Shown here: positions 1,953-29,527 of the stretch, piece by piece | How the letters are laid out: every line of letters begins with the position of its first letter | Numbering within the stretch: position 1 is the first letter of the stretch | Origin: Aliiroseovarius subalbicans | Lineage (GTDB): Bacteria; Pseudomonadota; Alphaproteobacteria; Rhodobacterales; Rhodobacteraceae | DNA length: 32,000 bases | Reading direction: 5' to 3' | NCBI RefSeq assembly: GCF_022678625.1 | Contig: NZ_JALBYQ010000001.1 | Coordinates: forward strand, 1,107,895-1,139,894 | Translations under genes and position numbers: made by a program | Notes under the pieces: generated by a model | What the model was told of the DNA's origin: nothing | The model's database searches: none | What the model saw: only the letters and a program-made list of their open reading frames with translations

Positions 1953-2573
1953 ATGCCCTTCGACCTCTGGCTTGCCTTCGTCGCCGCCTGTTTTGCGATC
2001 CTGCTGATCCCCGGACCCACGGTGTTGTTGGTCCTGTCCTATGCCCTGACCCAGGGGCGTCGGGTGGCCGTGGGCATGGCGCTTGGCGTGGCCCTGGGCG
2101 ATTTCATCGCCATGAGCGCCTCGCTTGCCGGGTTGGGCGCACTCGTGCTGGCCTCGGCCACCCTGTTCACGGTGCTGAAATGGGTCGGGGCGGTCTATCT
2201 TGTCTATCTGGGCGTGACGCTTTTGCGCGCCGGGCCAGTTCGGTTCGATCTGAATAGGCCTGAGGACAAGCCGGTTGGCGCCATCTTCACCCATGCCGCG
2301 GCGGTGACCGCCCTGAACCCCAAAAGCATCGCCTTTTTCATCGCTTTCGTGCCCCAGTTCATCCGGCCCGAGGCAGCCCTGGCACCGCAGTTTGCCATCC
2401 TGATCGCGACCTTCGTCGGTTTGGCCGGGGTGAATGCGCTGGCCTATGCGCTGCTGGCTGACCGCCTGCGCAGCCGCATTCGCCGCCCCGGCGTGCTGCG
2501 TTGGATGACCCGGATCGGCGGCGGCGCGCTGGTGTCCATGGGCGTGCTGACCGCCACGATGGCGCGTAACTAA
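1953..2573 (+). CDS. LysE/RhtB-family amino-acid (or homoserine-lactone) efflux protein
   Basis: The 206-aa hydrophobic product has the family-typical N-terminus FVAACFAILLIPGPTVLLVLSYAL. The length and TM pattern fit LysE/RhtB. An AAAGGAAA SD lies upstream. Confidence 0.85.
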   Translation: MPFDLWLAFVAACFAILLIPGPTVLLVLSYALTQGRRVAVGMALGVALGDFIAMSASLAGLGALVLASATLFTVLKWVGAVYLVYLGVTLLRAGPVRFDLNRPEDKPVGAIFTHAAAVTALNPKSIAFFIAFVPQFIRPEAALAPQFAILIATFVGLAGVNALAYALLADRLRSRIRRPGVLRWMTRIGGGALVSMGVLTATMARN

Positions 2574-2748
2574 CCCCGCGACCCCGCTGCAACAGCCGAT
2601 GGTTTCCATTTTCGCAAAAGTTGACCTAAGTCGCGGAAACTGACACATATTATCGCAACAAAAACGAGGTAGCACGGGACAAACCCGGCCCTTACCAAAG
2701 CAGGCGGACGTATGGCGAGTTCCTTGAACCAAATGGGCGGGGCGTAAG

Positions 2749-3771
2749 ATGCGCATCACCGCTGTCACCTGCGTCAAGAACGAAGGTCCCTTCCTGTTGG
2801 AGTGGATCGCCTTCAACCGCGTTCTTGGCGTCACGGATTTCCTTTTCTATTCAAACGATTGCACAGATGCGACCGACAAGATTCTGGACGCGTTGCAGGA
2901 CCGTGGCATCGTCACCCACCTGCCCAACCCGGCGCAGGGACGCAATTACCAGATGGAGGCACTGAAGGCGGCGAAAAAGCACGATCTGGTGCTGGCCTCG
3001 GACTGGACCTGGATCGCGGATGTGGACGAGTTTCTGAATATCCACGTCGGCAATGGCACCATCCCCGAACTGATCGAAGCCTGCGGCGACCCGCACGCAA
3101 TCTCGATCACGTTCCAGTTCTTCGCCAATTGCGACATCGACGACTATGTCGACAAGCCGGTGATCGAGCAGTTCACCCGCTCGCACAATCCCGACATCTG
3201 GTGCGATCAAACGGCGCAAGAGGTCAAGACACTGATCCGGCACGATTTTCCGGTGAAATACTACGGCGCGCATCGTCCCTTCATGAAAGACAAGCTGTCC
3301 AAGGACAGGCGGCCGAAATGGACCGACGGATCCGGGCGCGACGTGCCGTGGAAATACCGAACTGCGGCCAACAAACGGCGCATCCGCAAGTTTCCCGCCG
3401 GGGGCGCGCGCAATTTCGCGACACTGAACCATTATGCGCTGCGCTCGCTCGACAGCTATCTGGTCAAGAACGACCGCGGCGACGTGAACCGCGAAAACCG
3501 CGATTTCGACGACACCTATTGGCGTGAACGCAATGATGACGCGTGGGAAGACACCTCGATCAAGCGCTATCTGCCGCGTCTCAGGGCCGAGATGAAGGCG
3601 CTGATGGCGGACAAGGAAATCGCCGATCTTCACGCCGAAGCTGTCGCGGCCCACAAGGCCACGCTGGACCGGCTTTTGGCAGATGAGGATTATGTCACAC
3701 TGCGCAAGCAGTTGAAATCCGTCCCGAAACTCAGCCCGGCCGAGCTGGCCTTGCTGGAGTTGATCGCCTGA
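2749..3771 (+). CDS. Glycosyltransferase, GT2-like 'Glyco_tranf_2_4'/GT92-like domain (paralog 1 of 3)
   Basis: The 340-aa product has the N-terminal block VKNEGPFLLEWIAFNRVLGVTDFLFYSNDCTDATD, a DxD block ADVDEFLNIHVGNGT, and LNHYALRSLDSYLVKNDRG. The same three blocks recur in the ORFs at 4399 and 6744. I see no TM segment. Confidence 0.8.
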   Translation: MRITAVTCVKNEGPFLLEWIAFNRVLGVTDFLFYSNDCTDATDKILDALQDRGIVTHLPNPAQGRNYQMEALKAAKKHDLVLASDWTWIADVDEFLNIHVGNGTIPELIEACGDPHAISITFQFFANCDIDDYVDKPVIEQFTRSHNPDIWCDQTAQEVKTLIRHDFPVKYYGAHRPFMKDKLSKDRRPKWTDGSGRDVPWKYRTAANKRRIRKFPAGGARNFATLNHYALRSLDSYLVKNDRGDVNRENRDFDDTYWRERNDDAWEDTSIKRYLPRLRAEMKALMADKEIADLHAEAVAAHKATLDRLLADEDYVTLRKQLKSVPKLSPAELALLELIA

Positions 3772-3772
3772 G

Positions 3773-4399
3773 ATGGCGCCGCCGAAGGTCATAAACCTGG
3801 GGTTCCCAAAATCGGGCACCACGACGCTGGCGCAGGCGCTGACCCAAGCAGGGTTTCGCGTGGCGGACTGGAAGTTGCGCGGCGCGGGGCAAAAGGGCTT
3901 TGTTGGCGGGCTGATGTATCGCGGCTATTTCGAAACCGGCGACCCGCTGACATACCTTGGCGACTATGACGCCTTTTCCGAAATCGACGTGGTTCGCGAC
4001 AAACGTAATTTCTGGCCGCAATGCGATTTCGCCCTGATCCAGGCCATTCGCGACACCCATCCCGGTGCGCTGTTTCTGCTGTCCAGCCGGGACGCGGAGG
4101 CGCAGGCCGACAGCATGATGCGTTGGTCCGACATGGGCACACGGCGCCTGCCAATGACCAATATCCCCGGGCTGCCGAAAGGGTTTGGCAAAACCCGCGC
4201 GGACCTTACGCGCTGGATCACCGGGCACGTGGCCTTTTGCCAAAAAGTATTCGAGGGGGCCGAGGATTTCCTGGCCTATGACATCAACGACCCGGAGGCG
4301 CCGGGCAAAATCGGCGCATTCCTAGGGCGCGATCTGCCCTGGTGGGGGGTGGCCAATGCCAACCCACCTGTTGACGAGTTGAAGGAGGGCGCCGCCTGA
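3773..4399 (+). CDS. Sulfotransferase-family protein (PAPS-dependent type)
   Basis: The 208-aa product has a 5'-phosphosulfate-binding loop, GFPKSGTTTL (residues 10-19). It also has a 3'-phosphate-binding pattern after a beta-strand, FLLSSRDAEAQADS (R106...S114, the canonical R-x7-S spacing). The start lies 1 nt after the stop of the upstream GT gene. Confidence 0.7.
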   Translation: MAPPKVINLGFPKSGTTTLAQALTQAGFRVADWKLRGAGQKGFVGGLMYRGYFETGDPLTYLGDYDAFSEIDVVRDKRNFWPQCDFALIQAIRDTHPGALFLLSSRDAEAQADSMMRWSDMGTRRLPMTNIPGLPKGFGKTRADLTRWITGHVAFCQKVFEGAEDFLAYDINDPEAPGKIGAFLGRDLPWWGVANANPPVDELKEGAA

Positions 4400-6744
4400 T
4401 GCGCATCTATTTGCATATTGGCCTGGAGCAATGCGGTGCAACACGCATTCAGGAGGTGCTGGACAACAAGCGGGACCAGCTGTCCGACAAGGGCGTATTG
4501 TACCCCCGCACGCCGGGGCGGAAAAACCACACACGGCTGTATATGGCGGTGTCGGACCCTGACCGCGTCGACGTGCTGCGCGCCAATCGCGGCTTCACTG
4601 ATCCGGCGGCACAGGAAAAACTGCGCGCAGACGTGGCGCGGGATTTGGCCGCCGAGGTGGCGAAACACAACCCGGATGTGATGATCCTGTCAGCCTCACA
4701 GCTGTGCACCCTGTCGCGCCCGTCGGAACTGGCGCGGCTGAAAGCACTGCTGTTGCCGCTGTCCGATGACATCCGCGTCGTCGCCCATGTGGATGAACAA
4801 GGCCGCGTGCTGGCGCGCCATTATGCCGAGGCGGTGTTCTCGGGCCGGGTGTCACCTTTGGATCAGGAGCTTTCTATGCTCGGCGCGGCCTCTTGGCGGG
4901 ACGCGGCACTGGCAGACTGGGACGAGGTCGATCCGCGTCATCTGGGGCACCCTGAAATTCAGGCCCCACCCTTCTGGCTGGACTATCCCGCCCTGGTCAC
5001 CGCCTGGGAAGAGGCGTTTGGCGACGGCCGCGTGGCGCTGCGGGCCTATGATGCCGATCTGTTTGCCTCCGAACGGTTGACCGACGAAATTCGCGACGCT
5101 TTTTCGATCAAGGCCAACATCGGCAAGGCGGCCAAAGGGGGGCTGCCCGCGATGCCTGCAGCGGCCTGGTTGACCCGTGCGCGGATGTTGAACAAGGTTA
5201 TGGTGCAGCTTCTGCACAAGGGCCGGATCATCCCACGCCAGCTGTGGCGCCGCTTCATCGGCGAGATTGCGACACCGGGCGAGGCGATGCAGCCCGGATC
5301 CTTGGTCGAATTCTCGAAAATGTTCGAAAAGGACAACAAAGCGCTGGTTAAATCCCATGATCTGCCGGCTGAATGTCTGAAACGGGACAGGGCGCAGAAG
5401 CCCTGGAGTGAAGCAGACCCGGAAAAAGGATTTCGCGCCAGCCAATATGTGGCCGCCTTCCTACCCCGGATCGACATCATCACCCGTCAGGCCATCCGCG
5501 CCGCCCGCCAAGGTATCAAGGCCCAGCAACATGACGAAGAAAGCACGACAAACTCCGGCCTGACCGCCACGGCGGAACGACTGATGTCCGACCGCGCCAA
5601 GGAAAACTTTCACGAGCTGAAAGGCGGGCGTTTCGCGCCGCACAACCGGATTGGCCGGGTGAACGAGGAAGAGCTGGCCGCTGCCTTCTCCGAGGTGCCG
5701 ATGCGCGACCTGCCCAAGGGAAATTCGGGCAACGTCATCGTCGGCTGCATGAAGAACGAAGCGCCATATATTCTGGAATGGGTCGCCTTTCACCGCGCGA
5801 TCGGTGTCGACAATTTCATCATCTACACCAACGATTGCACCGACGGGACCAGCGAACTTCTGGACCGGTTGCAAGAGCTGGGCGTGCTGCAGCACCGCAA
5901 CAACGACAATTGGAAGGGTAATTCGCCCCAGCAATACGCGCTGAACCAATCGCTGAAGGAAGACGTGATCCTGAACGCCGAATGGGTGATCCATATTGAC
6001 GTGGATGAATTCATGAACGTGCGCTGTGGCAACGGCACGCTGGAGGATTTCCTGGAGCGTATCCCCGATGCCACCAATGTCGCGATGACCTGGCGTCTGT
6101 TCGGCCACAACGATGTGACGAAGTTCGAAGACGAGCTGGTGATCGAACAATTCGACCAGGCCGCGCCGAAATACTGCCCGAAACCGCACACGGTCTGGGG
6201 CTTCAAGACGATGATGAAGAACATCGGCGCCTATGAGAAGATTTCCTGCCACCGGCCCAACAAGTTGCGCGACACGCACCGGCAGAAGGTGCATTGGGTG
6301 AACGGCTCCGGTCAGCCGATGGGCGATGAGGTGAAAGAAGGCGGCTGGCGCTCGTCGCTGGGCACGATCGGCTATGACCTGCTTCAACTGAACCACTATG
6401 CGCTGCGCTCGGCGGAAAGCTTCCTGATCAAGCGTCAGCGCGGGCGCGCGCTGCATGTGGACCGCTCGATCGGCATCAACTACTGGGTGCGGATGGATTG
6501 GGGTGGCAACAAGGACGTCACGATCAAACGCAACATCCCGCGCACCAAGCTGGAATTGGCGCGACTGTTGGAGGATCAACAACTGCGTACGATCCATGAG
6601 GCCGGGGTGGCTTGGCACAAGGCCAAAGCCGCCGAGCTGCATGCGATGCCGGAGTTCCAGGAGCTCTATGCCCAGGCGCTGGAAACCGACCTGACCGAGA
6701 TGGAGCGCGTGGCCTATTCGCTGGCGCTGGACATGGAAAGCTGA
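4399..6744 (+). CDS. Two-domain protein: N-terminal sulfotransferase-like domain with a substituted PAPS loop, a linker, and a C-terminal glycosyltransferase domain (paralog 2 of 3)
   Basis: The product is 781 aa. The N-terminus YLHIGLEQCGATRIQEVL aligns position-for-position with VINLGFPKSGTTTLAQAL of the preceding sulfotransferase. The C-terminal domain (about nt 5731-6744) carries MKNEAPYILEWVAFHRAIGVDNFIIYTNDCTDGTS, IDVDEFMNVRCGNGT and LNHYALRSAESFLIKRQRG. The ATG shares A4399 with the upstream TGA (TGATG). GAAGGAGGG lies at 4381-4389. Confidence 0.78.
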   Translation: MRIYLHIGLEQCGATRIQEVLDNKRDQLSDKGVLYPRTPGRKNHTRLYMAVSDPDRVDVLRANRGFTDPAAQEKLRADVARDLAAEVAKHNPDVMILSASQLCTLSRPSELARLKALLLPLSDDIRVVAHVDEQGRVLARHYAEAVFSGRVSPLDQELSMLGAASWRDAALADWDEVDPRHLGHPEIQAPPFWLDYPALVTAWEEAFGDGRVALRAYDADLFASERLTDEIRDAFSIKANIGKAAKGGLPAMPAAAWLTRARMLNKVMVQLLHKGRIIPRQLWRRFIGEIATPGEAMQPGSLVEFSKMFEKDNKALVKSHDLPAECLKRDRAQKPWSEADPEKGFRASQYVAAFLPRIDIITRQAIRAARQGIKAQQHDEESTTNSGLTATAERLMSDRAKENFHELKGGRFAPHNRIGRVNEEELAAAFSEVPMRDLPKGNSGNVIVGCMKNEAPYILEWVAFHRAIGVDNFIIYTNDCTDGTSELLDRLQELGVLQHRNNDNWKGNSPQQYALNQSLKEDVILNAEWVIHIDVDEFMNVRCGNGTLEDFLERIPDATNVAMTWRLFGHNDVTKFEDELVIEQFDQAAPKYCPKPHTVWGFKTMMKNIGAYEKISCHRPNKLRDTHRQKVHWVNGSGQPMGDEVKEGGWRSSLGTIGYDLLQLNHYALRSAESFLIKRQRGRALHVDRSIGINYWVRMDWGGNKDVTIKRNIPRTKLELARLLEDQQLRTIHEAGVAWHKAKAAELHAMPEFQELYAQALETDLTEMERVAYSLALDMES

Positions 6745-7790
6745 TGCGCGCGACGGCCATCTTGTGCGTGCGCAACGAAGGCGCGTTTTTGCTGGAATGG
6801 CTGGCCCATCACCGGGGCGTCGGGTTCACGGATTTCCTTGTGTTTTCCAATGATTGCGATGACGGGACCGACGCAATACTGGACCGCCTGGAGGCATTGG
6901 GCGAGCTGACCCACCTTCGCAACGACGGCCCCCATGAAGGCGGCGTGCAATGGGCCGCGATGAAGATCGCGGACAAGCATCCGCTGGTGAAAAACGCCGA
7001 CTGGCTGATGACGCTGGACATTGATGAATTCGTGAACATCCACGTCGGCGACCATACGCTGGCGTCTTTGATTGCCACCCTGCCCGACGCGGACGCGATC
7101 ACGCTGACCTGGCGGCTGTTTGGCAATTGCGGTATCGAACGCTTTGAAGACCGCCCGGTGACCGAGGTTTTCACCCACGCAGCACCCGCCGTGATGTACT
7201 GGCCCTGGCGCGCGCATATGTTCAAGACGCTGTATCGCAACACCGGCGCCTATCGCAAACTGGGCGTGCACCGCCCGCGCAGCCCGGTGGATGGCAAGGC
7301 CGACGCCACCCGCTGGTTCGACGGCGAAGGACGCGCGCTTGAGACGCGGTTTCGCCGCCAGCAGATCTTTTCCCCGTTCGGGCGTTCGAACATCGCATTG
7401 GCGCAGCTGAACCACTATGCCCTTGGCGCGATGGAAAGCTATATCGTGAAACGCGATCGGGGCCGCGCGGTGCATGGTGCTGACAAGCTGGGGCTGGATT
7501 ATTGGAGCGAGCGCAACTGGTGTAACGTCGAGGACAGCTCGATCCGGCAATGTGACCGTTTGCGCGATGACCGGCTTGCGCGGTTGAAGGCGGATCCGAC
7601 GCTGGCCCGGCTGCACGCGCAGGCTGTGACATGGCGTCAGGACAGGTTCCATCAACTGATGCAGGAGGAACCCTTCCGAGCGCTCTATGGTCGGCTGTTG
7701 ATGTCGCCCCCGGCCCAGCCGATTCCCATCGACCGGGCGCGATTTCTGTTTTCATTTGCGCAGCAATCCAGAGGCAAACAGCGTGATTGA
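6744..7790 (+). CDS. Glycosyltransferase, same GT2-like/GT92-like domain (paralog 3 of 3)
   Basis: The track ORF 6612..7790 is trimmed to ATG 6744, which shares A6744 with the upstream TGA (TGATG). The product starts MRATAILCVRNEGAFLLEWLAHHRGVGFTDFLVFSNDCDDGTD. It then has LDIDEFVNIHVGDHT and LNHYALGAMESYIVKRDRG, colinear with paralog 1 from residue 1. Confidence 0.8.
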   Translation: MRATAILCVRNEGAFLLEWLAHHRGVGFTDFLVFSNDCDDGTDAILDRLEALGELTHLRNDGPHEGGVQWAAMKIADKHPLVKNADWLMTLDIDEFVNIHVGDHTLASLIATLPDADAITLTWRLFGNCGIERFEDRPVTEVFTHAAPAVMYWPWRAHMFKTLYRNTGAYRKLGVHRPRSPVDGKADATRWFDGEGRALETRFRRQQIFSPFGRSNIALAQLNHYALGAMESYIVKRDRGRAVHGADKLGLDYWSERNWCNVEDSSIRQCDRLRDDRLARLKADPTLARLHAQAVTWRQDRFHQLMQEEPFRALYGRLLMSPPAQPIPIDRARFLFSFAQQSRGKQRD

Positions 7791-7924
7791 TGCCAAACCG
7801 TCAACTGTTAACGACCTGTTTTCCAATTATCACCGTTTCGCCCCATTGCCCCCGCAATTGAGCCCGCATTACATTGGTATCCGCTGACCTGCCCCGGGAT
7901 GGGCAAAGGCATGTGGAGTATGAG

Positions 7925-8881
7925 ATGCAGGAAGATGTCCTGACAGTACCTGTTGACCTGGCCGAAGCCAGTCGCGCGGATTGGTTGGCCCAAATCGAAG
8001 ACATGGGTGAAGAGCGGGGGTATTTCGAACCGCTGGGCAAGCGCCACGCGGCCATCCTGACCGACGAGGGGCCGACCCTGATCGTCACGTTCGAAACCAT
8101 CGACGCGATCCGGACGGGGTCGGAAAGCCATGAACCGATGGGTTGGGAACTGGTGGCCGAGGACGGCTGGTCCAACCTATGCCTGCTGGCCCATGACGAC
8201 AGCTGGTTTCGTGACAAATCCGTATATGGGTATTTCGACCGTCTGGTAGATGACGGATTCTTCGAAGATTTCGACCGCGTGGTTTTCTATGGCACCGGCA
8301 TGTGCGGTTATGCAGCGGCGGCCTATTCGGTCGTGGCGCCCGGCGCGACGGTGATCGCGCTGCAACCGCAAGCCACGCTGGATCCGGCCCTGACCGAATG
8401 GGACACACGGTTTCCCGCCATGCGCCGCACCTCGTTCACGGACCGGTATGGCTATGCCCCCGATATGATCGAGGCAGCCGAGGGCGCCTTCATCATCTAC
8501 GACCCCACCGTGCCGGTGGATGCGATGCATGCGGCGCTGTTTAAGCGGTCGAACGTAACCCGGCTGCGCTGCCCCAACCTGGGCCACACGCTGGAAGCGG
8601 ACTTGTGGCAGATGGGTGCCCTGCCCGACATGATTGGTGCTGCGGCCCAAGGCAATCTGGATGCACCCATGTTCCACCGGCTGTATCGCCAGCGGCGCAC
8701 GCATATGCCGTACCTGCGCACGCTGCTTGAGCGGATGCAGAACGCGAACCGCCCGCGCATGGTGCAGATGCTGTCGAACTCGGTCGTCGCGCGCATGAAC
8801 GCGCCGCGCTTCCGCCGCGCCCGCGAACTGGCCGAACAGCAGTTGGAGGGCACTCCCTCTGAAACCACCCCGATCCTTTGA
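7925..8881 (+). CDS. Conserved-looking hypothetical protein, soluble, function unknown
   Basis: This is track ORF 7874..8881, whose start at 7874 is TTG. I prefer ATG 7925 (MQEDVLTVPVDL), which has GGAG at 7914-7917. Third codon positions are strongly G/C biased, like the flanking genes. A beta-alpha-beta-like stretch, RVVFYGTGMCGYAAAAYSVVAPGATVIALQP, is present. I cannot name a family for it. Confidence 0.65.
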   Translation: MQEDVLTVPVDLAEASRADWLAQIEDMGEERGYFEPLGKRHAAILTDEGPTLIVTFETIDAIRTGSESHEPMGWELVAEDGWSNLCLLAHDDSWFRDKSVYGYFDRLVDDGFFEDFDRVVFYGTGMCGYAAAAYSVVAPGATVIALQPQATLDPALTEWDTRFPAMRRTSFTDRYGYAPDMIEAAEGAFIIYDPTVPVDAMHAALFKRSNVTRLRCPNLGHTLEADLWQMGALPDMIGAAAQGNLDAPMFHRLYRQRRTHMPYLRTLLERMQNANRPRMVQMLSNSVVARMNAPRFRRARELAEQQLEGTPSETTPIL

Positions 8882-8990
8882 CCGCACCTCGCGAGACTTG
8901 TGCAAATCCTTGACGTGGATCAACGAGGACATCTTACCAAACGGATAAAGCATGGCGTAACTTCTTTTGTTTTCTGAAAGGACGCGCACC

Positions 8991-11381
8991 ATGACCAATG
9001 GCATTCAACACCTGATTTGGTTCGAAGACCTTCGCCGCGAAGACGGCGCTCTTGTCGGGGGTAAAAACTCGTCCCTTGGCGAAATGGTCGCTAAGCTGGA
9101 CCCGCTGGGCATCAAGGTCCCACCGGGCTACGCCACCACCGCCGACGCCTTCCGTGCCTTCATCAAGGCCAACGGGCTGACCAAGCTGATCAAGAAGACG
9201 ATGGAGGATCTGGCGGCCGAAAAGATCACGCTGGCCAAGGCCGGCAAAAAGGTGCGCAAGGCGATTGCCGCAGGCGAATTTCCCGCCGACACCCGGGACG
9301 CGATCATCGCGGCCTATCATGAGCTGGGCAAACGCACCGGCCATGCAGAGGCCTCGGTCGCCGTGCGGTCGTCTGCCACCGCCGAGGACCTGCCCGACGC
9401 GTCGTTCGCCGGTCAGCAGGAAACCTTCCTGAACGTGCGTGGGGAAAAGGCGCTGTTGGATACCTGTCGGCGCTGCTATGCGTCGCTGTTCACCGACCGG
9501 GCCATCACCTATCGCACGATCCAGGGCTTCGACCACCTTGACGTGGCGCTGTCGATTGGCGTGCAGCTGATGGTGCGCTCGGACATCGGTGGCTCGGGCG
9601 TCATGTTCTCGATCGACACCGAAACCGGGTTTGACAAATCCGTCCTGATCAACGCCGCCTGGGGCCTGGGTGAAAACGTCGTGCAAGGCGCGGTGACGCC
9701 GGACGAATACCAGGTCTACAAACCGTTCCTGGACAATCACGACCTCAACCCGATCCTTGAGAAAAAGCTGGGCGCGAAAGAGAAGAAGATGATCTATGCC
9801 GGGCTGGAGGGGGGCGACATTCGCAACGTGCCGACCTCGAAGGCCGAGCGCGCGTCGTTTGTCCTGTCCGACCCGGAAATCCTGGATCTGGCCCGCATGG
9901 CCAAGACGATCGAGGAGCATTACGGCTGCCCGATGGACATGGAATGGGCCCGCGACGGCGATACCGGCAAGCTCTATATCGTGCAGGCGCGCCCCGAAAC
10001 GGTGCAAAGCCGTGCGGATGTGGGGGCGATGAAGTCCTATACGGTGAAATCTGCCGGTGAGGTTCTGCTCAAAGGTCTGTCGGTGGGTGCTGCCGTGGCG
10101 ACCGGACAGATCTGCCTGATCGAGGACGTGAAGAACATCGACAAATTCGTTGATGGCGCGATCCTCGTAACCTCCACCACCGACCCGGACTGGGTGCCGA
10201 TCATGAAACGCGCCAGCGCCATCATCACGGACGCGGGCGGGCGCACCTCGCACGCGGCGATTGTCAGCCGTGAACTGGGCGTGCCAGCCATCGTCGGCAC
10301 CGGCACTGCGACCCACTTGCTGCACGACGAACAGGAAGTGACGGTCTCCTGCGCCGAAGGTGACGAAGGCATCATCTATGCCGGCATCGCCGAGTATGAG
10401 GTCGAGGACCTGCGTCTGGACAACGTGCCGGAAACCAAGACCAAGATCATGCTGAACTTGGCCAACCCCTCCACCGCCGCACGGTGGTGGAAACTGCCGG
10501 TCGATGGCGTCGGTCTGGCGCGTATGGAGTTCGTGATCAACAACGCGATCAAGGTGCACCCGCTGGCGCTGATCAACTTCGATCAGCTGCGCGATCAGGC
10601 GGCCCGCGACGAGATCGAGGAACTGACCAAGGGCTATGACGACAAGACCGATTACTTCGTCGAACACCTTGCCATGGGCCTCAGCCGCATCGCCGCACTT
10701 GTCTATCCGAAACCGGTGATCGTGCGCATGTCGGACTTCAAGACGAACGAATACGCCGACCTTCTGGGCGGGCGTCAGTTCGAACCGCACGAAGAAAACC
10801 CGATGATCGGCTTCCGTGGTGCGTCGCGCTATTACTCCGAAAGCTACAGCCCCGGCTTCGCGCTGGAATGCAAAGCGATCGAGAAGCTGCGCGAAGAAAT
10901 GGGCTTTGACAACGTCGTCGTCATGATCCCCTTCTGTCGCTCGCTGGACGAGGCGGACAAGGTGTTGGAGGTGATGGGCCAGAACGGGCTGTCGCGCGGT
11001 GAGAAAGGCCTAGAGGTCTATGTCATGTGCGAAATCCCCGCCAACGTGATTCTGGCCGAGCGTTTCGCCGACCGGTTCGACGGCTTCTCGATCGGGTCGA
11101 ATGACCTGACCCAGCTGACGCTGGGTGTTGACCGGGATTCGGGTGAACTGGCCGATTTGTTCGACGAATCGAACGATGCGGTGACCTGGATGATCCGCAC
11201 GGTGATCGAAAAGGCCCATGCGCATGGCTCCCACGTGGGTCTGTGTGGGCAGGCGCCGTCGAACAACCCTGAATTCGCACAGCTTCTGGTGGATGCCGAG
11301 ATCGACACGATTTCGGTCACGCCCGACAGCTTCATCGCGGTGAAGGAACATGTCGCCGCGGCCGAGGCCAAGAAGAAATAG
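8991..11381 (+). CDS. ppsA: Phosphoenolpyruvate synthase (pyruvate, water dikinase)
   Basis: The product is 796 aa counted from [14 protein letters not shown] (ATG 8991, AAAGGA SD). It has the N-terminal [10 protein letters not shown], the phospho-histidine motif [21 protein letters not shown] and the C-terminal PEP-utilising block GLCGQAPS. It is colinear with E. coli PpsA. Confidence 0.95.
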
Positions 11382-18713: not shown

Positions 18714-19796
18714 GTGACGACCGCGCTCGCGACACTCGGCGATGACATGGGCCTGCCCGAACCATTTGCGGTGCCGGGCGTGCTTGGTCTTGGCGCGCCG
18801 AAACAACTGACCAAAAAGCAAAAAGCGGCGATCATCGTGCGCCTGTTGCTGGCCGAAGGGGTGGATTTACCCCTGACCGGAATGGATGAGGGCATTCAAG
18901 AAGACCTGACATTGCAGATGTCCGCCATGCGCTTCGTCGACCGCGCAACGTTGAAATCGGTGATCGAGGAATTTGTCAGTGAAATGGAGGAAATTGGCCT
19001 GTCCTTTCCGGCCGGCCTGGAAGGCGCGTTGACCGTGCTTGAGGGCACGATCAGCCCGGCCACCGCGGCGCGCATTCGCAAACAGGGCGGCGTGCGCCAC
19101 ACCGGCGACCCATGGGAAACGATTTCTGGCTTGGACCCCGCCCGTCTGATGCCGGTGTTGGAGGAGGAAAGCGTCGAGATCGCGGCGGTGCTGTTGTCGA
19201 AACTGAAGGTCTCTACCGCCGCCGAGCTGCTGGGCAAGCTGCCCGGCCCGCGCGCCCGGCGCGTGGCCTATGCGGTGTCGCTGACCGGCTCGATAGAACC
19301 GGAGGTCGTGGACAAGATCGGCCGCTCACTGGCCGAACAACTGGACGCACAACCCTTGCGGGCCTTTGCCGACGGCCCGGTGGAGCGGGTTGGCGCGATC
19401 CTGAATTTCAGCCCCGCCGCCACCCGCGATGAAGTTCTGGAAGGGCTGGACAAGGACGACGCCGCCTTTGCCAGCGAAGTGCGCAAAGCCATCTTCACCT
19501 TCGCCAACATTCCCGCCCGGATCGACCCACGCGATATTCCCAAGCTCACCAAGGATATCGACCAGGCGGTTCTGATCACTGCCCTGGCCGCTGCTGCGGT
19601 CGACCTGACCGAGGTTGTGGATTTCATCCTGGACTCCATGTCCAAACGCATGGCCGACCAGATCCGCGAAGAGATGGAAAACCTGGGAAAGGTAAAAGAC
19701 AAGGATGGCGAGGCCGCGATGAACGCAGTCATCGCCACCATCCGTGCGTTGGAAGCGGCCGGCGAGGTGCTGCTGATCGCCGAAGACGAGCAGTAG
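18714..19796 (+). CDS. fliG: Flagellar motor switch (rotor) protein FliG homologue
   Basis: The start is GTG with GGAGG at 18704-18708. The product is 360 aa. The N-domain has KKQKAAIIVRLLLAEG, the central region has the FliG MFxF-type motif AIFTFANI, and the C-terminal torque helix is SKRMADQIREEMENLGKVK. That helix aligns with E. coli SQRAADILRDDLANRGPVR (R281, D288, D289, R297 correspond here to R312, E319, E320, K328). Confidence 0.85.
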   Translation: MTTALATLGDDMGLPEPFAVPGVLGLGAPKQLTKKQKAAIIVRLLLAEGVDLPLTGMDEGIQEDLTLQMSAMRFVDRATLKSVIEEFVSEMEEIGLSFPAGLEGALTVLEGTISPATAARIRKQGGVRHTGDPWETISGLDPARLMPVLEEESVEIAAVLLSKLKVSTAAELLGKLPGPRARRVAYAVSLTGSIEPEVVDKIGRSLAEQLDAQPLRAFADGPVERVGAILNFSPAATRDEVLEGLDKDDAAFASEVRKAIFTFANIPARIDPRDIPKLTKDIDQAVLITALAAAAVDLTEVVDFILDSMSKRMADQIREEMENLGKVKDKDGEAAMNAVIATIRALEAAGEVLLIAEDEQ

Positions 19797-27452: not shown

Positions 27453-27806
27453 TCACACCGGCAGGGCGGCCAGGGCGATGCGCCGGCCTTCGCTGACCAG
27501 AACGTTGAAGGTACGGCAAGCCGAGGGCGACGCCATTGCCTCGACTCCGATCCCGACCGCCTCCAAAGCCTCGCGCAGTGCGGCGGGCGGGTGCGCGGTG
27601 TCAGCGCCGGTGCCCAGAAACAGCACGTCGACCTGGCCCGACAGCGCCACAAGCGGGCCGAGGTCATCAGGGCCGGCCCAGCTGCGGGCGGCCTGATCGG
27701 TGATCAGCATCGGCCCCTGGATCACTTCGCCCGCCACGCGGAAAAAGCCGGGGCCATAGCCATCGACCGGCACCGCGCTGTCATAGGTGATTTCCGTCAG
27801 TTGCAT
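27453..27806 (-). CDS. Mth938-like domain protein (DUF498; bacterial homologue of the complex I assembly factor NDUFAF3)
   Basis: I trimmed the track ORF 27453..27932 to MQLTEITYDSAVPVDGYGPGFFRVAG (ATG 27806-27804). The RBS GAGGA overlaps the upstream stop. DVLFLGTG and ACRTFNVLVSEGRRIALAALPV are typical of the family. Confidence 0.8.
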   Translation of the reverse strand: MQLTEITYDSAVPVDGYGPGFFRVAGEVIQGPMLITDQAARSWAGPDDLGPLVALSGQVDVLFLGTGADTAHPPAALREALEAVGIGVEAMASPSACRTFNVLVSEGRRIALAALPV

Positions 27807-27813
27807 GTGATCC

Positions 27814-28566
27814 TCAGTCGAAAAGCGGCAGGCCCGACAAGGCCGACGCCGCGATAAGCAGATAGGCCGCCGCACGGTAGGTTTTTTCAAGCTCTGGTCG
27901 GAACAGCCACCCGCCCAGCACGTTTCCGGCAAGATACGGCAGCGCTAGCAGAAAGCCCAGCACAAGCGCAGTGGGCTCCAACCGCCCCATGACCCAGAGC
28001 AAAAGCATCATCAGAAGGTCGACGCCCAGCAGGTAAAGTAGCAAGTTCGCGCGGATCACCCGGACCTGGTGACGAGACGCCATGTAGAGCATGATGACCG
28101 GCGGGCCCGCCAGGCCGGTGGCCCCGGCAAGAAACCCGCCCAGCATGCCAGTCGCATAAATCATCCAGTGCTTCAGCGTGCCCCGGTAGCGGTAGCCGGT
28201 GATCAACAACACCAGCAGCGTCAGGGACAAAAGCGAGACCGAATAGCGAAAGACCTCGGGCGCGATGCTGGCCAGCGTCCAGATGCCGATCGGCATGGCG
28301 ATGAGAAGCCCGCCGCACAGCCGCAGGATATCCCGCCGGTGCCCGTCGCGCACCGCGCGCGGCACATTGGGCAACGGGCCAATCACGTCCATCGCAGTTA
28401 GGGTGACAAGGGCTGCGAACGGGTCCAGGATCTGCCCTGCAACAGGCATATAGATCATCGCGGTTCCGAACCCGGTAAACCCCCGAACAACGCCCGCGAC
28501 TGTTGTCGCCGCCACCAGCCAAAGCAGATACTCCTGCCCCAGCGCGGCGGCGATCAGATCAGGCAT
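27814..28566 (-). CDS. TauE/SafE-family (sulfite/organosulfonate exporter-type) membrane protein
   Basis: I trimmed the ORF to MPDLIAAALGQEY (ATG 28566-28564), giving 250 aa. The polytopic product carries the duplicated GFTGFG / GATGLAGPP glycine-rich helices typical of TauE/SafE. The start overlaps the secF stop by 8 nt (ATGCCTGA). Confidence 0.85.
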   Translation of the reverse strand: MPDLIAAALGQEYLLWLVAATTVAGVVRGFTGFGTAMIYMPVAGQILDPFAALVTLTAMDVIGPLPNVPRAVRDGHRRDILRLCGGLLIAMPIGIWTLASIAPEVFRYSVSLLSLTLLVLLITGYRYRGTLKHWMIYATGMLGGFLAGATGLAGPPVIMLYMASRHQVRVIRANLLLYLLGVDLLMMLLLWVMGRLEPTALVLGFLLALPYLAGNVLGGWLFRPELEKTYRAAAYLLIAASALSGLPLFD

Positions 28567-29527
28567 CCACGTTCGCGAACTGGGTGCCGGCATTTGCGTC
28601 GGGCTTGGACCAGTCCCGCTTGACGCCAAGGCGCAGCAGGATCGCCGAGGCGACGAAGACCGACGAATAGGTGCCCACGATCACGCCCCAGATCATCGCG
28701 AAGACGAAGCCGCGGATCACGTCCCCGCCCAGGATATACAGCGAGATCAGCGCGATCAGCGTGGTGACCGAGGTCATCACCGTGCGCGACAGGGTTTCGT
28801 TGATCGACAGGTTCAGCACCTCTTTCAGGTCCATCTTCTTGTAGCGCCGCAGGTTTTCGCGCACCCGGTCGAACACGACCACGGTGTCGTTCAACGAATA
28901 GCCGACGATGGTCAGAAGGGCGGCAATGATGGCCAGGTCGAACTTGATCTGCACCACGGCGAACACGCCAATGGTCAGAACCACGTCATGCACCAGCGCC
29001 GCAACCGCGCCCAGGCTGAACTGCCATTCGAACCGCAGCCAGATATAGACCAGAACCGCCGCGATGGCGGCCAAAACCGCATAGATCGCGGTCAAGACAA
29101 GCTCGCCCGAGACCTTCGGCCCCACGCTTTCCACGCTGGGAAATGTGATCGCCGGATCGGCGCCGCGCAGCGCGTCCTGGATGACCGCCATGGTTTCCGG
29201 CGTGATCGCCTCTTCGCCCTCCTGGGCTTCGATACGGATCTGGCTGACATGCTGGTCGTCACGGAAGTTCACGTCGAACACTTCAGTGATCGACACATCG
29301 CCCAGGTTCAGCGGCGCCAGAGCGTCGCGATACCCCCCCACGTCCACGGCCTGCGTGCTTTCCGTCCGGATCGTCGTGCCGCCCCGGAAATCGATGCCGA
29401 AATTCAGGCCGATGACAAAGAAAGCCACGACCGAGGCCACCATCAAAAGCGCCGAGAACCCGAAGGTGATCGACGTTTTCGAGAAAAAATCCCAGTTCGT
29501 TTCAGCAGGAACAAGTCTCAGGCGCAT
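28559..29527 (-). CDS. secF: Protein translocase subunit SecF
   Basis: I trimmed the ORF to MRLRLVPAETNWDFF (ATG 29527-29525), giving 322 aa. It has FGIDFRGGT and YSLNDTVVVFDRVREN. A GGAGG SD lies inside the secD 3' end, and the ATG is 1 nt after the secD stop. Confidence 0.93.
   Translation of the reverse strand: MRLRLVPAETNWDFFSKTSITFGFSALLMVASVVAFFVIGLNFGIDFRGGTTIRTESTQAVDVGGYRDALAPLNLGDVSITEVFDVNFRDDQHVSQIRIEAQEGEEAITPETMAVIQDALRGADPAITFPSVESVGPKVSGELVLTAIYAVLAAIAAVLVYIWLRFEWQFSLGAVAALVHDVVLTIGVFAVVQIKFDLAIIAALLTIVGYSLNDTVVVFDRVRENLRRYKKMDLKEVLNLSINETLSRTVMTSVTTLIALISLYILGGDVIRGFVFAMIWGVIVGTYSSVFVASAILLRLGVKRDWSKPDANAGTQFANVDA

Follow-up and report, generated by a model that had tools for sequence, protein, structure and literature searches.

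A conserved gene cluster of marine roseobacters combines three GT92-like glycosyltransferase units with a sulfotransferase and may decorate a surface glycan

A compact group of genes in Aliiroseovarius subalbicans encodes glycosyltransferases and a sulfotransferase with no exporter beside them, which raises the question of what glycan they serve and whether it leaves the cell. The original prediction described a five-gene operon for a soluble machine, and not a capsule- or O-antigen-type locus, within the window (the whole 32-kb stretch of DNA analysed here). Re-reading the sequence confirmed its five same-strand ORFs, here named A to E, with their coordinates and junctions (Table 1).

Table 1. 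Features of the cluster and other genes of the 32-kb window (positions are those of the window).
Feature	Positions	Strand	Description
A	2749-3771	+	ORF, 340 aa; stand-alone GT-A glycosyltransferase (Glyco_tranf_2_4/GT92-like), DVDEF motif
B	3773-4399	+	ORF, 208 aa; small PAPS-type sulfotransferase
C (whole)	4399-6744	+	ORF, 781 aa
C N-terminal domain	4399-5718	+	~aa 1-380 plus linker; putative sulfotransferase-like fold, degenerate PAPS loop HIGLEQCGAT
C C-terminal domain	5719-6744	+	Second GT-A unit (Glyco_tranf_2_4/GT92-like), IDVDEF motif
D	6744-7790	+	Third GT-A unit, 348 aa from ATG, LDIDEF motif
Promoter-like motif 5' of E	7836-7859	+	TTTCGCCCCA ... CAATT, conserved
E	7925-8881	+	318 aa; predicted alpha/beta-hydrolase-fold accessory protein, Gly replacing the nucleophile Ser
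Other genes in the window			AbrB-family, LysE, ppsA, pyrC-like amidohydrolase, PRTase, dnaB, bioY, purB, fliG, lipid A acyltransferase, DUF1223, aconitase, ccmABC, DUF498, TauE, secDF

Read directly in the sequence, the A/B junction is TGAgATG (3769-3775), and the B/C and C/D junctions are both TGATG (4397-4401 and 6742-6746, respectively). The C/D overlap reflects a lineage without the methyltransferase gene that lies between C and D in about half of the related loci and is absent here. The frame of D is already open from a TTG at 6612, and the ATG at 6744 was chosen since it agrees with the N-termini of A and of the homologues; likewise, the frame of E is open from 7874, and its start was placed at 7925, where the homologues begin with MQ(D/E). 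A 134-nt spacer separates D from E, with a GGAG located 7 nt upstream of the E ATG, and the minimum D-E spacer among 117 loci is ~86 nt. The motif T[TC][TC]NGCCNNA occurs in 92 of 109 D-E spacers (in shuffles, 4.1 on average and at most 9) at a median position 76 nt upstream of the E ATG, and the same motif precedes E in genomes without glycosyltransferase genes; it would act as a promoter. Because of this spacer and this conserved promoter-like motif, the tight unit is A-D, with E apparently promoted separately. A coupled operon of four genes, with E added, describes the locus better than a five-gene operon does: the coupling of A-D stands, but E, which has its own motif and also occurs alone, lies apart.

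The original prediction had read three copies of one glycosyltransferase domain, and the Pfam search gives three paralogous GT-A domains. PF13704 was matched above the gathering score by A (1.1e-18), C at aa 452-552 (2.3e-23), and D (3.1e-21), and PF01697 (GT92) was matched above threshold over the same stretches (7.6e-13 for A); these are exactly the families that had been anticipated. A shares 31-39% identity with the other two units, and the DxDEF and NHYALRS motifs are common to all three. A PDB sequence search with the units returned no match. The orthologues of A (58-85% identity) occupy the first place of the cluster, the fusion of N-terminal domain and glycosyltransferase in C is kept at ~772-809 aa in 120/120 listed homologues, and D is the unit most often retained beside E, including loci with D and E only. 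In CAZy, GT92 comprises, for example, the plant GALS1 galactan synthases and the C. elegans beta-1,4-galactosyltransferase GALT-1. The eukaryotic enzymes resemble the cluster units in matching PF01697, in having a GT-A-type fold, and in carrying a DxD motif; however, they are Golgi type II membrane proteins, whereas the cluster units are soluble, ~340 aa long, and carry a conserved helical C-terminal tail.

B matches PF17784 (Sulfotransfer_4) at 6.2e-8 with 33.2 bits, above the gathering cut-off of 22.8 bits, and 23 orthologues show no variation in NLGxPKxGTT, R106, and S114; both the expected sulfotransferase-family match for this ORF and the reading of a small sulfotransferase with intact PAPS motifs were thus borne out. 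B has 1148 homologues, and every named one in the list of the 120 best comes from Rhodobacterales, the majority carrying the NCBI name sulfotransferase. Residues 1-440 of C have no Pfam or NCBIfam match, and a profile comparison of the C N-terminus with B detected no similarity. The best PDB matches to its AlphaFold model (pLDDT 88.9) in Foldseek are sulfotransferases with weak E-values (3rnl, 1.2e-3; NDST1 ST domain, 8.8e-3), with TPST2 and CurM ST as further matches, which suggests a sulfotransferase-like fold. All 120 listed homologues have other residues in place of the Lys and the first Thr of PKxGTT. Of the earlier reading of this half as a sulfotransferase-like domain with substituted motifs, the degenerate PAPS loop is therefore firm and the fold tentative.

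E, formerly left as a protein of unknown function, has no Pfam or NCBIfam match and can now be described further by its predicted fold and as a recurrent fusion partner of glycan enzymes. Its model (pLDDT 91.9) gave 220 PDB matches at E<=1e-3, and the 50 best listed are nearly all alpha/beta hydrolases with TM of 0.40-0.45 (Foldseek E ~3e-7 and probability 1.0 for the core fold). This core matches hormone-sensitive-lipase-type esterases and Asp2/Gap-type glycan acetyltransferases, though only at that TM range; unlike them, E has a Gly at the nucleophile position and an extra C-terminal helical bundle of ~100 residues, together with many invariant Arg. The elbow reads YGTGMCGY here, and the Gly is present in the window E and in 62 of 69 close homologues, whereas the fused relatives read G-x-S-M-G-G-Y and keep the canonical G-x-S-x-G elbow of alpha/beta-hydrolase esterases; an Asp and a His are conserved family-wide. 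As modelled, E is an alpha/beta-hydrolase-fold protein without the nucleophile Ser. An A. subalbicans protein 100% identical to E is named 'PAPS reductase' by NCBI, a name for which no support was found.

Wherever the genes are found in Rhodobacterales genomes and metagenomes, they follow one order, A-B-C-(methyltransferase)-D-E. This set is carried by 45 of the 69 E-anchored genome loci, and E lies immediately downstream on the same strand in 46 of the 50 C-anchored metagenome loci with enough flank; the same order in well over a hundred independent loci is beyond chance. Three parts are optional: the methyltransferase, the sulfotransferase, and A-C as a block. B is missing in ~10 loci, and the optional methyltransferase and B fit a core glycan with optional substituents. 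The link to E is not obligate, since E has no glycosyltransferase neighbour in 9/69 loci (the E-only loci adjoin divergent cox genes) and Maritimibacter HTCC2654 and 4/50 metagenome loci have A-D genes but no E. E is always followed by a pyrC-like gene or ppsA, and additional E-domain genes are grouped in the same variable island in one other full-cluster context (L085). A literature search found no paper characterising the cluster, which is real, uncharacterised, and conserved across marine roseobacters.

The gene survey of the 32-kb window found no Wzx/Wzy/Wzz, capsule ABC exporter, priming transferase, nucleotide-sugar or PAPS gene, as originally noted, and no exporter, priming transferase or nucleotide-sugar gene lies beside the cluster in L085 or in two further full-cluster contexts (L088 and L089). 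In L089, a DegT-family aminotransferase is located ~3 kb past E. No TM segment or signal peptide is present in any of the five proteins, whose Kyte-Doolittle means over 19 residues peak at 1.42, in agreement with the earlier view by eye. 'Exporter-less', however, holds only in cis, and relatives of the GT92-like and E modules are found in exporter-linked loci, although these are distant relatives (28-43% identity) and not orthologues. E domains are fused to GT92-like domains in P0389 and a Loktanella plasmid protein, to Sulfotransfer_2 in P0295 and, with a faint Sulfotransfer_2 match, in P0316, to a 'sulfotransferase' (NCBI annotation) on Paracoccus albus p4, to a methyltransferase in Cognatishimia, and to a pyruvyltransferase on pP128_e of Phaeobacter gallaeciensis, the single plasmid that was read completely. 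Among the Phaeobacter plasmid rows that were listed, from a total of 57 Phaeobacter records with a match, the E-like match mostly lies in a protein named pyruvyltransferase. Loci of E/GT92-like relatives carry rhamnose or GDP-mannose genes; some include ManC, Ugd, and epimerases, and one contains ABC, HlyD, YjbH/YjbF, an epimerase, and two GT92-like genes. The Loktanella fusion adjoins rfbABCD; the pP128_e fusion is accompanied by GT4, YjbF/YjbH, and an NDP-sugar epimerase, with a type I secretion ABC/HlyD pair ~8 kb off, beside a calcium-binding protein. A-D orthologues were not seen on the Phaeobacter and Loktanella plasmids with E-like domains. Relatives thus occur in polysaccharide loci with exporters, a setting that the original prediction had counted against itself for orthologues in characterised loci, but these loci are uncharacterised and the relatives distant.

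A self-contained cytoplasmic machine, which would assemble and sulfate a short glycan on an acceptor that is soluble or stays in the cell (a small molecule, storage-type oligosaccharide or internal lipid) and would export nothing, is an unlikely explanation, though the likeliest of the three rivals to the main reading. It agrees with the five proteins without TM segments or signal peptides and with the lack of exporter, priming, and precursor genes in the window and beside the three other clusters; however, the absence of TM helices does not discriminate, since glycosyltransferases of lipid-linked pathways are commonly TM-less and soluble or peripheral. A precedent is provided by the cytoplasmic polymethylated polysaccharides of mycobacteria, whose clusters combine glycosyltransferases and methyltransferases without an exporter. 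The Pfam family of B (S. mansoni-type) acts on small molecules. In its favour too, this family is listed as distinct from the polysaccharide sulfotransferases (PMC11625862). Against such a machine, relatives of the glycosyltransferase and E modules have exporters and polysaccharide proteins of the outer membrane as neighbours, E domains occur in fusion with a pyruvyltransferase and near rhamnose operons, both typical of surface polysaccharides, and roseobacter polysaccharide genes are reportedly dispersed over replicons (PMC5030684). Given these relatives in exporter-bearing polysaccharide loci, the claim of a soluble machine that is not of capsule or O-antigen type does not follow, and a surface glycan exported by machinery encoded elsewhere appears more likely.

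Somewhat less probable still is that E stands outside a system consisting of A-D, as a core roseobacter gene that is merely syntenic and heads the block E - pyrC-like - PRTase - dnaB. Its own conserved motif, retained in genomes without glycosyltransferase genes, the spacer of at least 86 nt in 117/117 loci, the E-only loci next to cox genes, the A-D loci without E, and the constant pyrC-like gene or ppsA after E all point that way; yet the independent fusions to the same glycosyltransferase family, to sulfotransferases, a methyltransferase, and a pyruvyltransferase, the extra E-domain genes in the island of L085, and the direct downstream position in most C-anchored loci argue for membership. 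There is only a slim chance of cytoplasmic glycosylation and sulfation of a protein (e.g., flagellin or another secreted or surface protein) in place of a lipid-linked glycan. In its favour are the solubility of every enzyme, the syntenically conserved position of fliG 10 kb downstream, and the presence of an accessory Sec glycosylation-associated complex (6oyc_B, rank 45) in the PDB list of E. Against it, the fliG linkage is incidental via purB and dnaB with no other flagellar gene nearby, a Phaeobacter motility transposon screen does not mention glycosyltransferases or glycosylation, the cluster encodes no candidate acceptor protein, and the relatives go with nucleotide-sugar and YjbF/YjbH/ABC polysaccharide genes and not with secretion substrates.

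Bacterial glycan sulfation is also known from Sinorhizobium LpsS, mycobacterial Stf0, and cyanobacterial synechan (xss), which employ PAPS-type sulfotransferases, the type of B, on glycans or glycolipids; the earlier list of such systems was incomplete in omitting synechan and NoeE. To our knowledge, none of LpsS, Stf0, and synechan combines three GT92-like units, a fusion of a sulfotransferase-like pseudo-domain with a glycosyltransferase, and an E domain; the synechan locus has its own Wzx/Wzy-type export genes, and Stf0 works alone on trehalose. NodH and NoeE are rhizobial Nod-factor sulfotransferases, and NoeI is an FkbM-type methyltransferase. In Nod-factor decoration, alphaproteobacterial, soluble, PAPS-dependent sulfotransferases and an FkbM-family O-methyltransferase modify a short glycan that soluble or peripheral enzymes assemble, as the cluster and its relatives would do; sulfation and methylation are optional and strain-specific there, and the genes for them are so here too. 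In contrast, the Nod system has the NodABC chitin-oligomer backbone machinery, which the cluster lacks, and its genes sit on a symbiosis island, whereas the cluster lies on the chromosome and spans the marine roseobacter clade. B belongs to Sulfotransfer_4 and the cluster glycosyltransferases are GT92-like, whereas NodH was identified with Sulfotransfer_3 (PMC11625862). In the same host clade as the cluster, roseobacters reportedly distribute more than 20 EPS genes, the rhamnose operon, and a capsule ABC exporter over distinct biofilm plasmids (PMC5030684), the EPS loci being those of RepA-I plasmids. Those EPS loci are plasmid-borne with precursor genes and, according to that paper, the exporter; the cluster, in contrast, is found on the chromosome without either and includes a sulfotransferase. 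Phaeobacter plasmids of ~65-70 kb, not typed here as RepA-I, resemble those loci in carrying an E-like domain beside polysaccharide genes, as does the Loktanella plasmid.

The gene structure, families, motifs, synteny, and fusions are observed directly; from them we infer as follows which acceptor is used, in what order the enzymes act, what E does, and how the product is exported. A, B, C, and D would be expressed as a translationally coupled operon and E from its own promoter. A, the C-terminal half of C, and D, as DxD-type GT-A enzymes, would each add one sugar, from nucleotide sugars made elsewhere, to a glycan held on the cytoplasmic side of the inner membrane. B would transfer sulfate from PAPS to this glycan, and, in the related genomes that have it, the FkbM-type methyltransferase would O-methylate it too. 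The N-terminal domain of C, having lost the PAPS-binding Lys and Thr, is probably a binding or positioning module and not an enzyme. E may be an accessory module of the same machinery, as its fused relatives suggest, and a docking or acceptor-binding role is likelier than hydrolysis since the catalytic Ser is missing in the clade. The product would most likely be found at the surface, as a sulfated oligo- or polysaccharide of EPS, capsule or LPS type. At roughly even chances, the cluster is a chromosomal glycan-building and decorating module of roseobacters, serving a sulfated surface glycan whose export machinery is encoded elsewhere.

The five genes of the cluster, which encode three glycosyltransferase (GT) proteins (A, C and D), a sulfotransferase (B) and an α/β-hydrolase-fold protein (E), are ORFs on the same strand and lie exactly where the original prediction had placed them. 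The junctions read directly from the sequence, TGAgATG for A/B and TGATG for both B/C and C/D (the last at 6742-6746), are of the predicted types, as is the GGAG located 7 nt 5' of the E ATG; the spacer between D and E measures 134 nt. As had been judged by eye, none of the five products has a segment hydrophobic enough for a TM helix; Kyte-Doolittle means over 19 residues peak at 1.42.

Coordinates of the cluster ORFs and of the promoter-like motif preceding E, counted within the window
Feature	Position	Strand	Remark
A	2749-3771	+	ORF
B	3773-4399	+	ORF
C	4399-6744	+	ORF
D	6744-7790	+	start taken as the ATG matching the N-termini of A and homologues
E	7925-8881	+	ORF
Promoter-like motif upstream of E	7836-7859		conserved T[TC][TC]NGCCNNA and TA element

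The remaining genes of the window are housekeeping genes: AbrB-family, LysE, ppsA, a pyrC-like amidohydrolase, a PRTase, dnaB, bioY, purB, fliG, a lipid A acyltransferase, aconitase, ccmABC, TauE and secDF. Exporter, chain-length and polymerase genes are absent from the ORFs of the 32-kb window, as are priming phosphoglycosyltransferase and nucleotide-sugar Pfam families, and PAPS genes were not found in the window either, all of which bears out the original prediction. Because exporter, primer and precursor genes are missing in cis, the cluster falls outside the self-contained capsule, O-antigen and EPS loci of the Wzx/Wzy- or ABC-dependent kind. No exporter, chain-length or polymerase gene lies beside the cluster in the related loci L085, L088 and L089; such genes adjoin distant relatives in L087 and L170. 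The base composition is uniform (GC 0.57-0.65 along the window and 0.60-0.63 within the cluster) and gives no sign of recent horizontal acquisition. A generic sigma-70 and terminator scan of 2400-9100 returned matches at or below chance, and Rfam and tRNA scans of the whole window returned none. In the 175-nt intergenic region between LysE and A, TTGACC is followed 19 nt later by CATATT (2621-2651); this pair, which the consensus scan left uncalled because its spacer is one base over the limit, could be the operon promoter. Two further observations concern the surroundings. A lone fliG lies downstream of purB (18714-19796) with other flagellar genes not nearby, and fliG also follows purB in Maritimibacter HTCC2654 (L088, 21312-22343). 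Between secF and ccmA, on the minus strand, are genes for a TauE/SafE-family membrane protein (27817-28629; Pfam name, sulfite exporter) and a DUF498 protein (27456-27932), for which no evidence of a tie to the cluster was found.

The Pfam search returned the families that had been predicted. Glyco_tranf_2_4 (PF13704) scores 68, 83 and 76 bits in A, C and D, respectively, against a cut-off of 27.5, and GT92 (PF01697) scores 34-49 bits in the GT units against a cut-off of 23; the two matches overlap in every unit, in C within residues 452-588. The three GT units are full-length paralogues with 31-39% identity, all sharing DxDEF and NHYALRS. Their DxD motifs read DVDEF, IDVDEF and DIDEF, with D, D, E and F unchanged in every unit and also among 21 homologues of C. 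With both the Pfam threshold exceeded and a DxD motif present, A, the C-terminus of C, and D are predicted GT-A glycosyltransferases; a search for PDB or characterised sequence relatives of these units found none. In B, Sulfotransfer_4 (PF17784) reaches 33.2 bits, above its cut-off of 22.8, with the match covering the N-terminal half of the model only. B carries GFPKSGTTT, and P12, K13, G15, T16, T17, R106 and S114 do not vary among 23 orthologues, and neither does NLGxPKxGTT. We take PKxGTT to be the 5'-phosphosulfate-binding loop and R106...S114 to be the 3'-phosphate-binding Arg...Ser. Among the best listed matches of 1148 B homologues, the named ones are mostly called sulfotransferase. Judged by sequence, B is a bona fide PAPS-type sulfotransferase with the intact PAPS motifs attributed to it earlier.

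The N-terminal half of C (model pLDDT 88.9) has no Pfam match within residues 1-440, and its comparison with the B profile by hhalign was not significant (probability 0.4%). Its top Foldseek matches in the PDB are sulfotransferases, albeit weak ones (E 1e-3 to 1e-1, target TM ~0.5), the best being 3rnl (1.2e-3), the NDST1 sulfotransferase domain (8.8e-3), TPST2 and CurM. A P-loop-like segment, HIGLEQCGAT, takes the family form HIGLxxCGA. In all 120 homologues the position of the PKxGTT Lys is occupied by C, V or T, and that of the first Thr nearly always by A (otherwise P, G, S, T or V), so that the PAPS-binding Lys and Thr appear to be missing from this domain. It is conserved, and is probably a non-catalytic, sulfotransferase-derived (pseudo-sulfotransferase) domain; the "substituted motifs" reported earlier were rightly seen, and the evidence for the fold, with weak Foldseek matches and a negative profile comparison, is modest.

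E and C are 100% identical to Aliiroseovarius subalbicans proteins (order Rhodobacterales). An E profile scan detected relatives of E in at least 554 species-representative genomes, and all 80 loci listed from that scan belong to Rhodobacterales or unclassified MAGs. Among 69 E-anchored loci with sufficient upstream sequence, 45 have the order A-B-C-(MT)-D-E, where MT is a methyltransferase gene; B is missing in 3, the cluster is partial in 2, D-E only is present in 10, and E stands alone in 9. In the E-alone genomes, divergent cox genes adjoin E, after which pyrC-like, PRTase and dnaB genes follow as in the window. A C-anchored metagenome scan gave the identical invariant order, E following D in 46 of the 50 loci with enough right flank, and in Maritimibacter HTCC2654 the locus reads A-B-C-MT-D with E absent. 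MT (~235 aa), of the FkbM/Methyltransf_21 type of SAM methyltransferase, lies between C and D in about half of the loci, including L090, L093 and the closest metagenomic relatives of the window (77% identity in C, with AbrB-LysE on the left flank and ppsA on the right, as here). It is absent from the window, from A. crassostreae S72 and from A. salicola, and the C/D overlap in the window is a scar-free junction resulting from this absence. From the conserved order and the optional genes, it follows that the system is a GT core with optional sulfation and methylation. The cluster is real, conserved and uncharacterised.

Some loci depart from this arrangement. The pyrC-like gene directly follows E in most genomes, and ppsA stands between the two in the window (8967-11381) and, among the relatives, in a minority (L089, L090, L093, L094 and L164); its presence there suggests an insertion, particular to some lineages, into an otherwise conserved gene order. 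In A. crassostreae CV919-312 (L002, ~5073-9699), A is truncated, both halves of C are each found in two tblastn pieces, and a remnant of MT apparently continues the reading frame of C at its end. The cluster is intact in another strain of this species, S72 (L003), and the degraded appearance in CV919-312 reflects either pseudogenisation or an assembly error.

The model of E (pLDDT 91.9) gave 220 PDB matches at E<=1e-3, and the best 50 listed are nearly all α/β hydrolases, with TM scores of only 0.40-0.45 and a C-terminal helical bundle added in E; the predicted core is accordingly of the α/β-hydrolase fold. No Pfam or NCBIfam family, including PAPS_reduct (PF01507), matches E at E<=0.1. Many members of the family are named "phosphoadenosine phosphosulfate reductase" by NCBI, and one "GAT domain-containing protein". 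We rejected E as a PAPS reductase (CysH), since the PAPS_reduct domain is missing and the predicted fold is that of an α/β hydrolase instead of an adenine-nucleotide α-hydrolase, and the naming looks like a propagated misannotation. An exhaustive profile search found 2351 cluster representatives at E<=1e-3, the best 150 of which were aligned for the nucleophile elbow and residue conservation. The canonical elbow, G-x-S-M-G-G-Y, is found in distant and fused members (26 of the 150 overall and 15 of the 25 long proteins). The elbow of the window's E reads Y-G-T-G125-M-C-G-Y, with G125 aligned to the Ser of the fused relatives, and Gly occupies this position in 62 of 69 close homologues. With Gly in place of the Ser, Cys or Asp of G-x-Nu-x-G, the window's E appears to be devoid of a canonical nucleophile. 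Cys127, considered as a shifted nucleophile, is no substitute because stand-alone representatives of the family vary there between G, C, A and S. D193, D199, H202, R96 and R162 are conserved throughout the family. E represents an unclassified α/β-fold family that Pfam lacks and whose domain repeatedly occurs fused to polysaccharide enzymes.

Does E belong to the system at all? The spacer between D and E is at least ~86 nt in all 117 loci, and T[TC][TC]NGCCNNA, followed by a TA-containing element, occurs in 92 of 109 D-E spacers, compared with 4.1 on average after shuffling; its median position is 76 nt upstream of the E ATG. The same motif precedes E in genomes without GT genes, and from these features E most likely has its own promoter. 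The five-gene operon of the original prediction therefore holds for A-D, with their coupled junctions, but not for E with its predicted separate promoter. (CtrA/motility control of E was dropped, since the CtrA box TTAA-N7-TTAA is found upstream of E in none of 78 loci.) The spacer and the motif would also suit an E that has nothing to do with the system, which we consider rather improbable in view of the repeated fusions of the E domain to glycan enzymes. The partners are an A/C/D-family GT (P0389 and a 646-aa protein of a Loktanella salsilacus plasmid), Sulfotransfer_2 (P0295 and, with a faint match, P0316), a SAM methyltransferase in Cognatishimia, and a polysaccharide pyruvyltransferase (a 669-aa protein of Phaeobacter gallaeciensis pP128_e); a 546-aa annotated "sulfotransferase" of Paracoccus albus plasmid p4 also contains an E domain. 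On Phaeobacter plasmids, with 57 matching records, the E-like match lies within a pyruvyltransferase-named protein in most of the rows listed. P0261 has tandem E domains, and the roseobacter locus L085 has a second E-domain gene, fused and divergent from C-D-E. Another N-terminal fusion partner resembles GT32 only below threshold (Caps_synth 0.024, Gly_transf_sug 0.064), and the label "GT32-like" was rejected and kept as a lead. From the fusions and the second copy in L085, we take E to have a functional link with the machinery despite being transcribed separately.

The neighbourhoods of distant relatives indicate the kind of product. The GT-E fusion P0389 has as neighbours ManC, a UDP-glucose/GDP-mannose dehydrogenase, two epimerase/dehydratases and a GSCFA protein, and the Loktanella GT-E fusion adjoins rfbABCD and GT61. 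The sulfotransferase-E fusion P0316 lies near a GT2_4 protein, a GT32-like protein, a dehydrogenase and GT25. L087 contains an ABC transporter, an HlyD-type adaptor, YjbH, YjbF, an E-domain protein, an epimerase and two GT92-like genes, and a Phaeobacter plasmid (L170) contains GT4, the pyruvyltransferase-E fusion, YjbF/YjbH, an NDP-sugar epimerase and a type I ABC/HlyD pair. When the neighbours of unnamed function in the distant loci were searched with HMMs built from B and from the N-terminal half of C, none matched. The modules of the window's cluster belong, in relatives, to surface-polysaccharide loci. Sulfated surface glycans are plausible for Rhodobacteraceae, the family that includes the genus Poseidonocella, in view of a polysaccharide from that genus. 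This sulfated O-polysaccharide, from Poseidonocella pacifica, has been described chemically, according to a citing article (Kokoulin et al. 2017, cited in PMC7281560). The RepA-I biofilm plasmids of roseobacters, which are needed for attachment, carry more than 20 EPS genes, a rhamnose operon and a capsule-type ABC exporter (Michael et al., PMC5030684), and roseobacter polysaccharide genes are therefore dispersed over replicons.

Three further contexts were observed. On a 504-kb plasmid of Thioclava sp. FTW29 (L173, 9598-14848), three E-like domains occur together: one forms the C-terminus of a hypothetical protein of 744 aa, and the others are proteins of 332 aa and 310 aa, the latter again named "PAPS reductase"; their genes flank a formylglycine-generating-enzyme gene and adjoin a sulfatase-like gene, and the two stand-alone copies retain a Ser elbow (GTSMGGY/GTSMAGY). 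This neighbourhood is another link to sulfate-ester chemistry. The 37-kb p4 of Paracoccus albus (L172) is dominated by glycan genes, with several GTs, UDP-galactopyranose mutase, a GT2 and small-sulfotransferase pair and the sulfotransferase-E fusion, and no exporter was found within the 18.7 kb examined. In the brown alga Nemacystus decipiens, a fused sulfotransferase/α-β-hydrolase gene adjoins fucoidan precursor genes, and PF13704 glycosyltransferases missing in Ectocarpus are present (PMC6418280); the bacterial sulfotransferase-E fusions pair the same domains.

The best explanation overall, which we hold with about even confidence, is a glycan-building and -decorating cluster whose product is exported by machinery encoded elsewhere. 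Gene structure, families, motifs, conservation and fusions were observed; what the acceptor is, in which order the enzymes act, what the pseudo-domain and E do, and how the product is exported belong to a scheme that we infer. A-D would be co-translated, and the three DxD GT-A enzymes would add sugars, from precursors made elsewhere, to a glycan located on the cytoplasmic side of the membrane. B would sulfate this glycan using PAPS, and relatives with MT would also O-methylate it. The pseudo-sulfotransferase domain of C may serve as a binding or docking module, and so may E, with its α/β fold, missing nucleophile and many invariant Arg; the product would leave through export machinery encoded elsewhere. 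The original prediction had instead proposed a truly cytoplasmic product; its families, motifs and lack of an exporter in cis stand, but the modules of relatives sit in surface-polysaccharide loci, and we regard this reading as unlikely. Quite unlikely too, in our estimate, is a self-sufficient cytoplasmic pathway to a hitherto unknown, never-exported sulfated (in most roseobacters also O-methylated) oligosaccharide or glycoconjugate, in which the E family would be a new acceptor-carrying or assembly module, a hub docking GT, sulfotransferase, methyltransferase and pyruvyltransferase; if true, it would reveal a new class of intracellular sulfated glycan in a bacterial clade that ranks among the most abundant in the sea. 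That the enzymes glycosylate protein seems very improbable.

The cluster belongs to a familiar category, that of clusters for making and decorating glycans that include a sulfotransferase, and is a variant not described before. Its enzymology resembles that of rhizobial Nod-factor decoration, where a sulfotransferase and an FkbM methyltransferase are likewise optional decorations, and that of sulfated-EPS systems. PDB sequence searches with B, C, E, the B profile and the three-GT profile returned nothing significant, NCBIfam has no family for any of A-E, and no study of the cluster was found in the literature on roseobacter sulfotransferases, GT92, PF13704 or PF17784; a motility screen and a phage-resistance study in roseobacters concern other genes. 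What is unusual is the combination of three GT92-like paralogues, a conserved pseudo-sulfotransferase fusion and an unclassified α/β-fold accessory family misnamed by NCBI; no mechanistically surprising feature has emerged yet.

Roseobacters are dominant marine surface colonisers and algal partners (PMC5030684), and the glycans for their attachment and recognition are poorly defined. Most of the E-anchored loci examined carry the full set, and so widespread a cluster, adding sulfate and often methyl, would point to a clade-wide sulfated bacterial glycan, chemically recalling the sulfated polysaccharides of algal hosts. The cluster is a small, defined genetic target: full clusters occur in several isolates of Phaeobacter (L017, L026 and L071), a genus with a transposon library, that of Phaeobacter inhibens DSM 17395. 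It is widespread within a clade of ecological importance and open to direct testing, and, if its function is confirmed, it would join the few known pathways of carbohydrate sulfation in bacteria.
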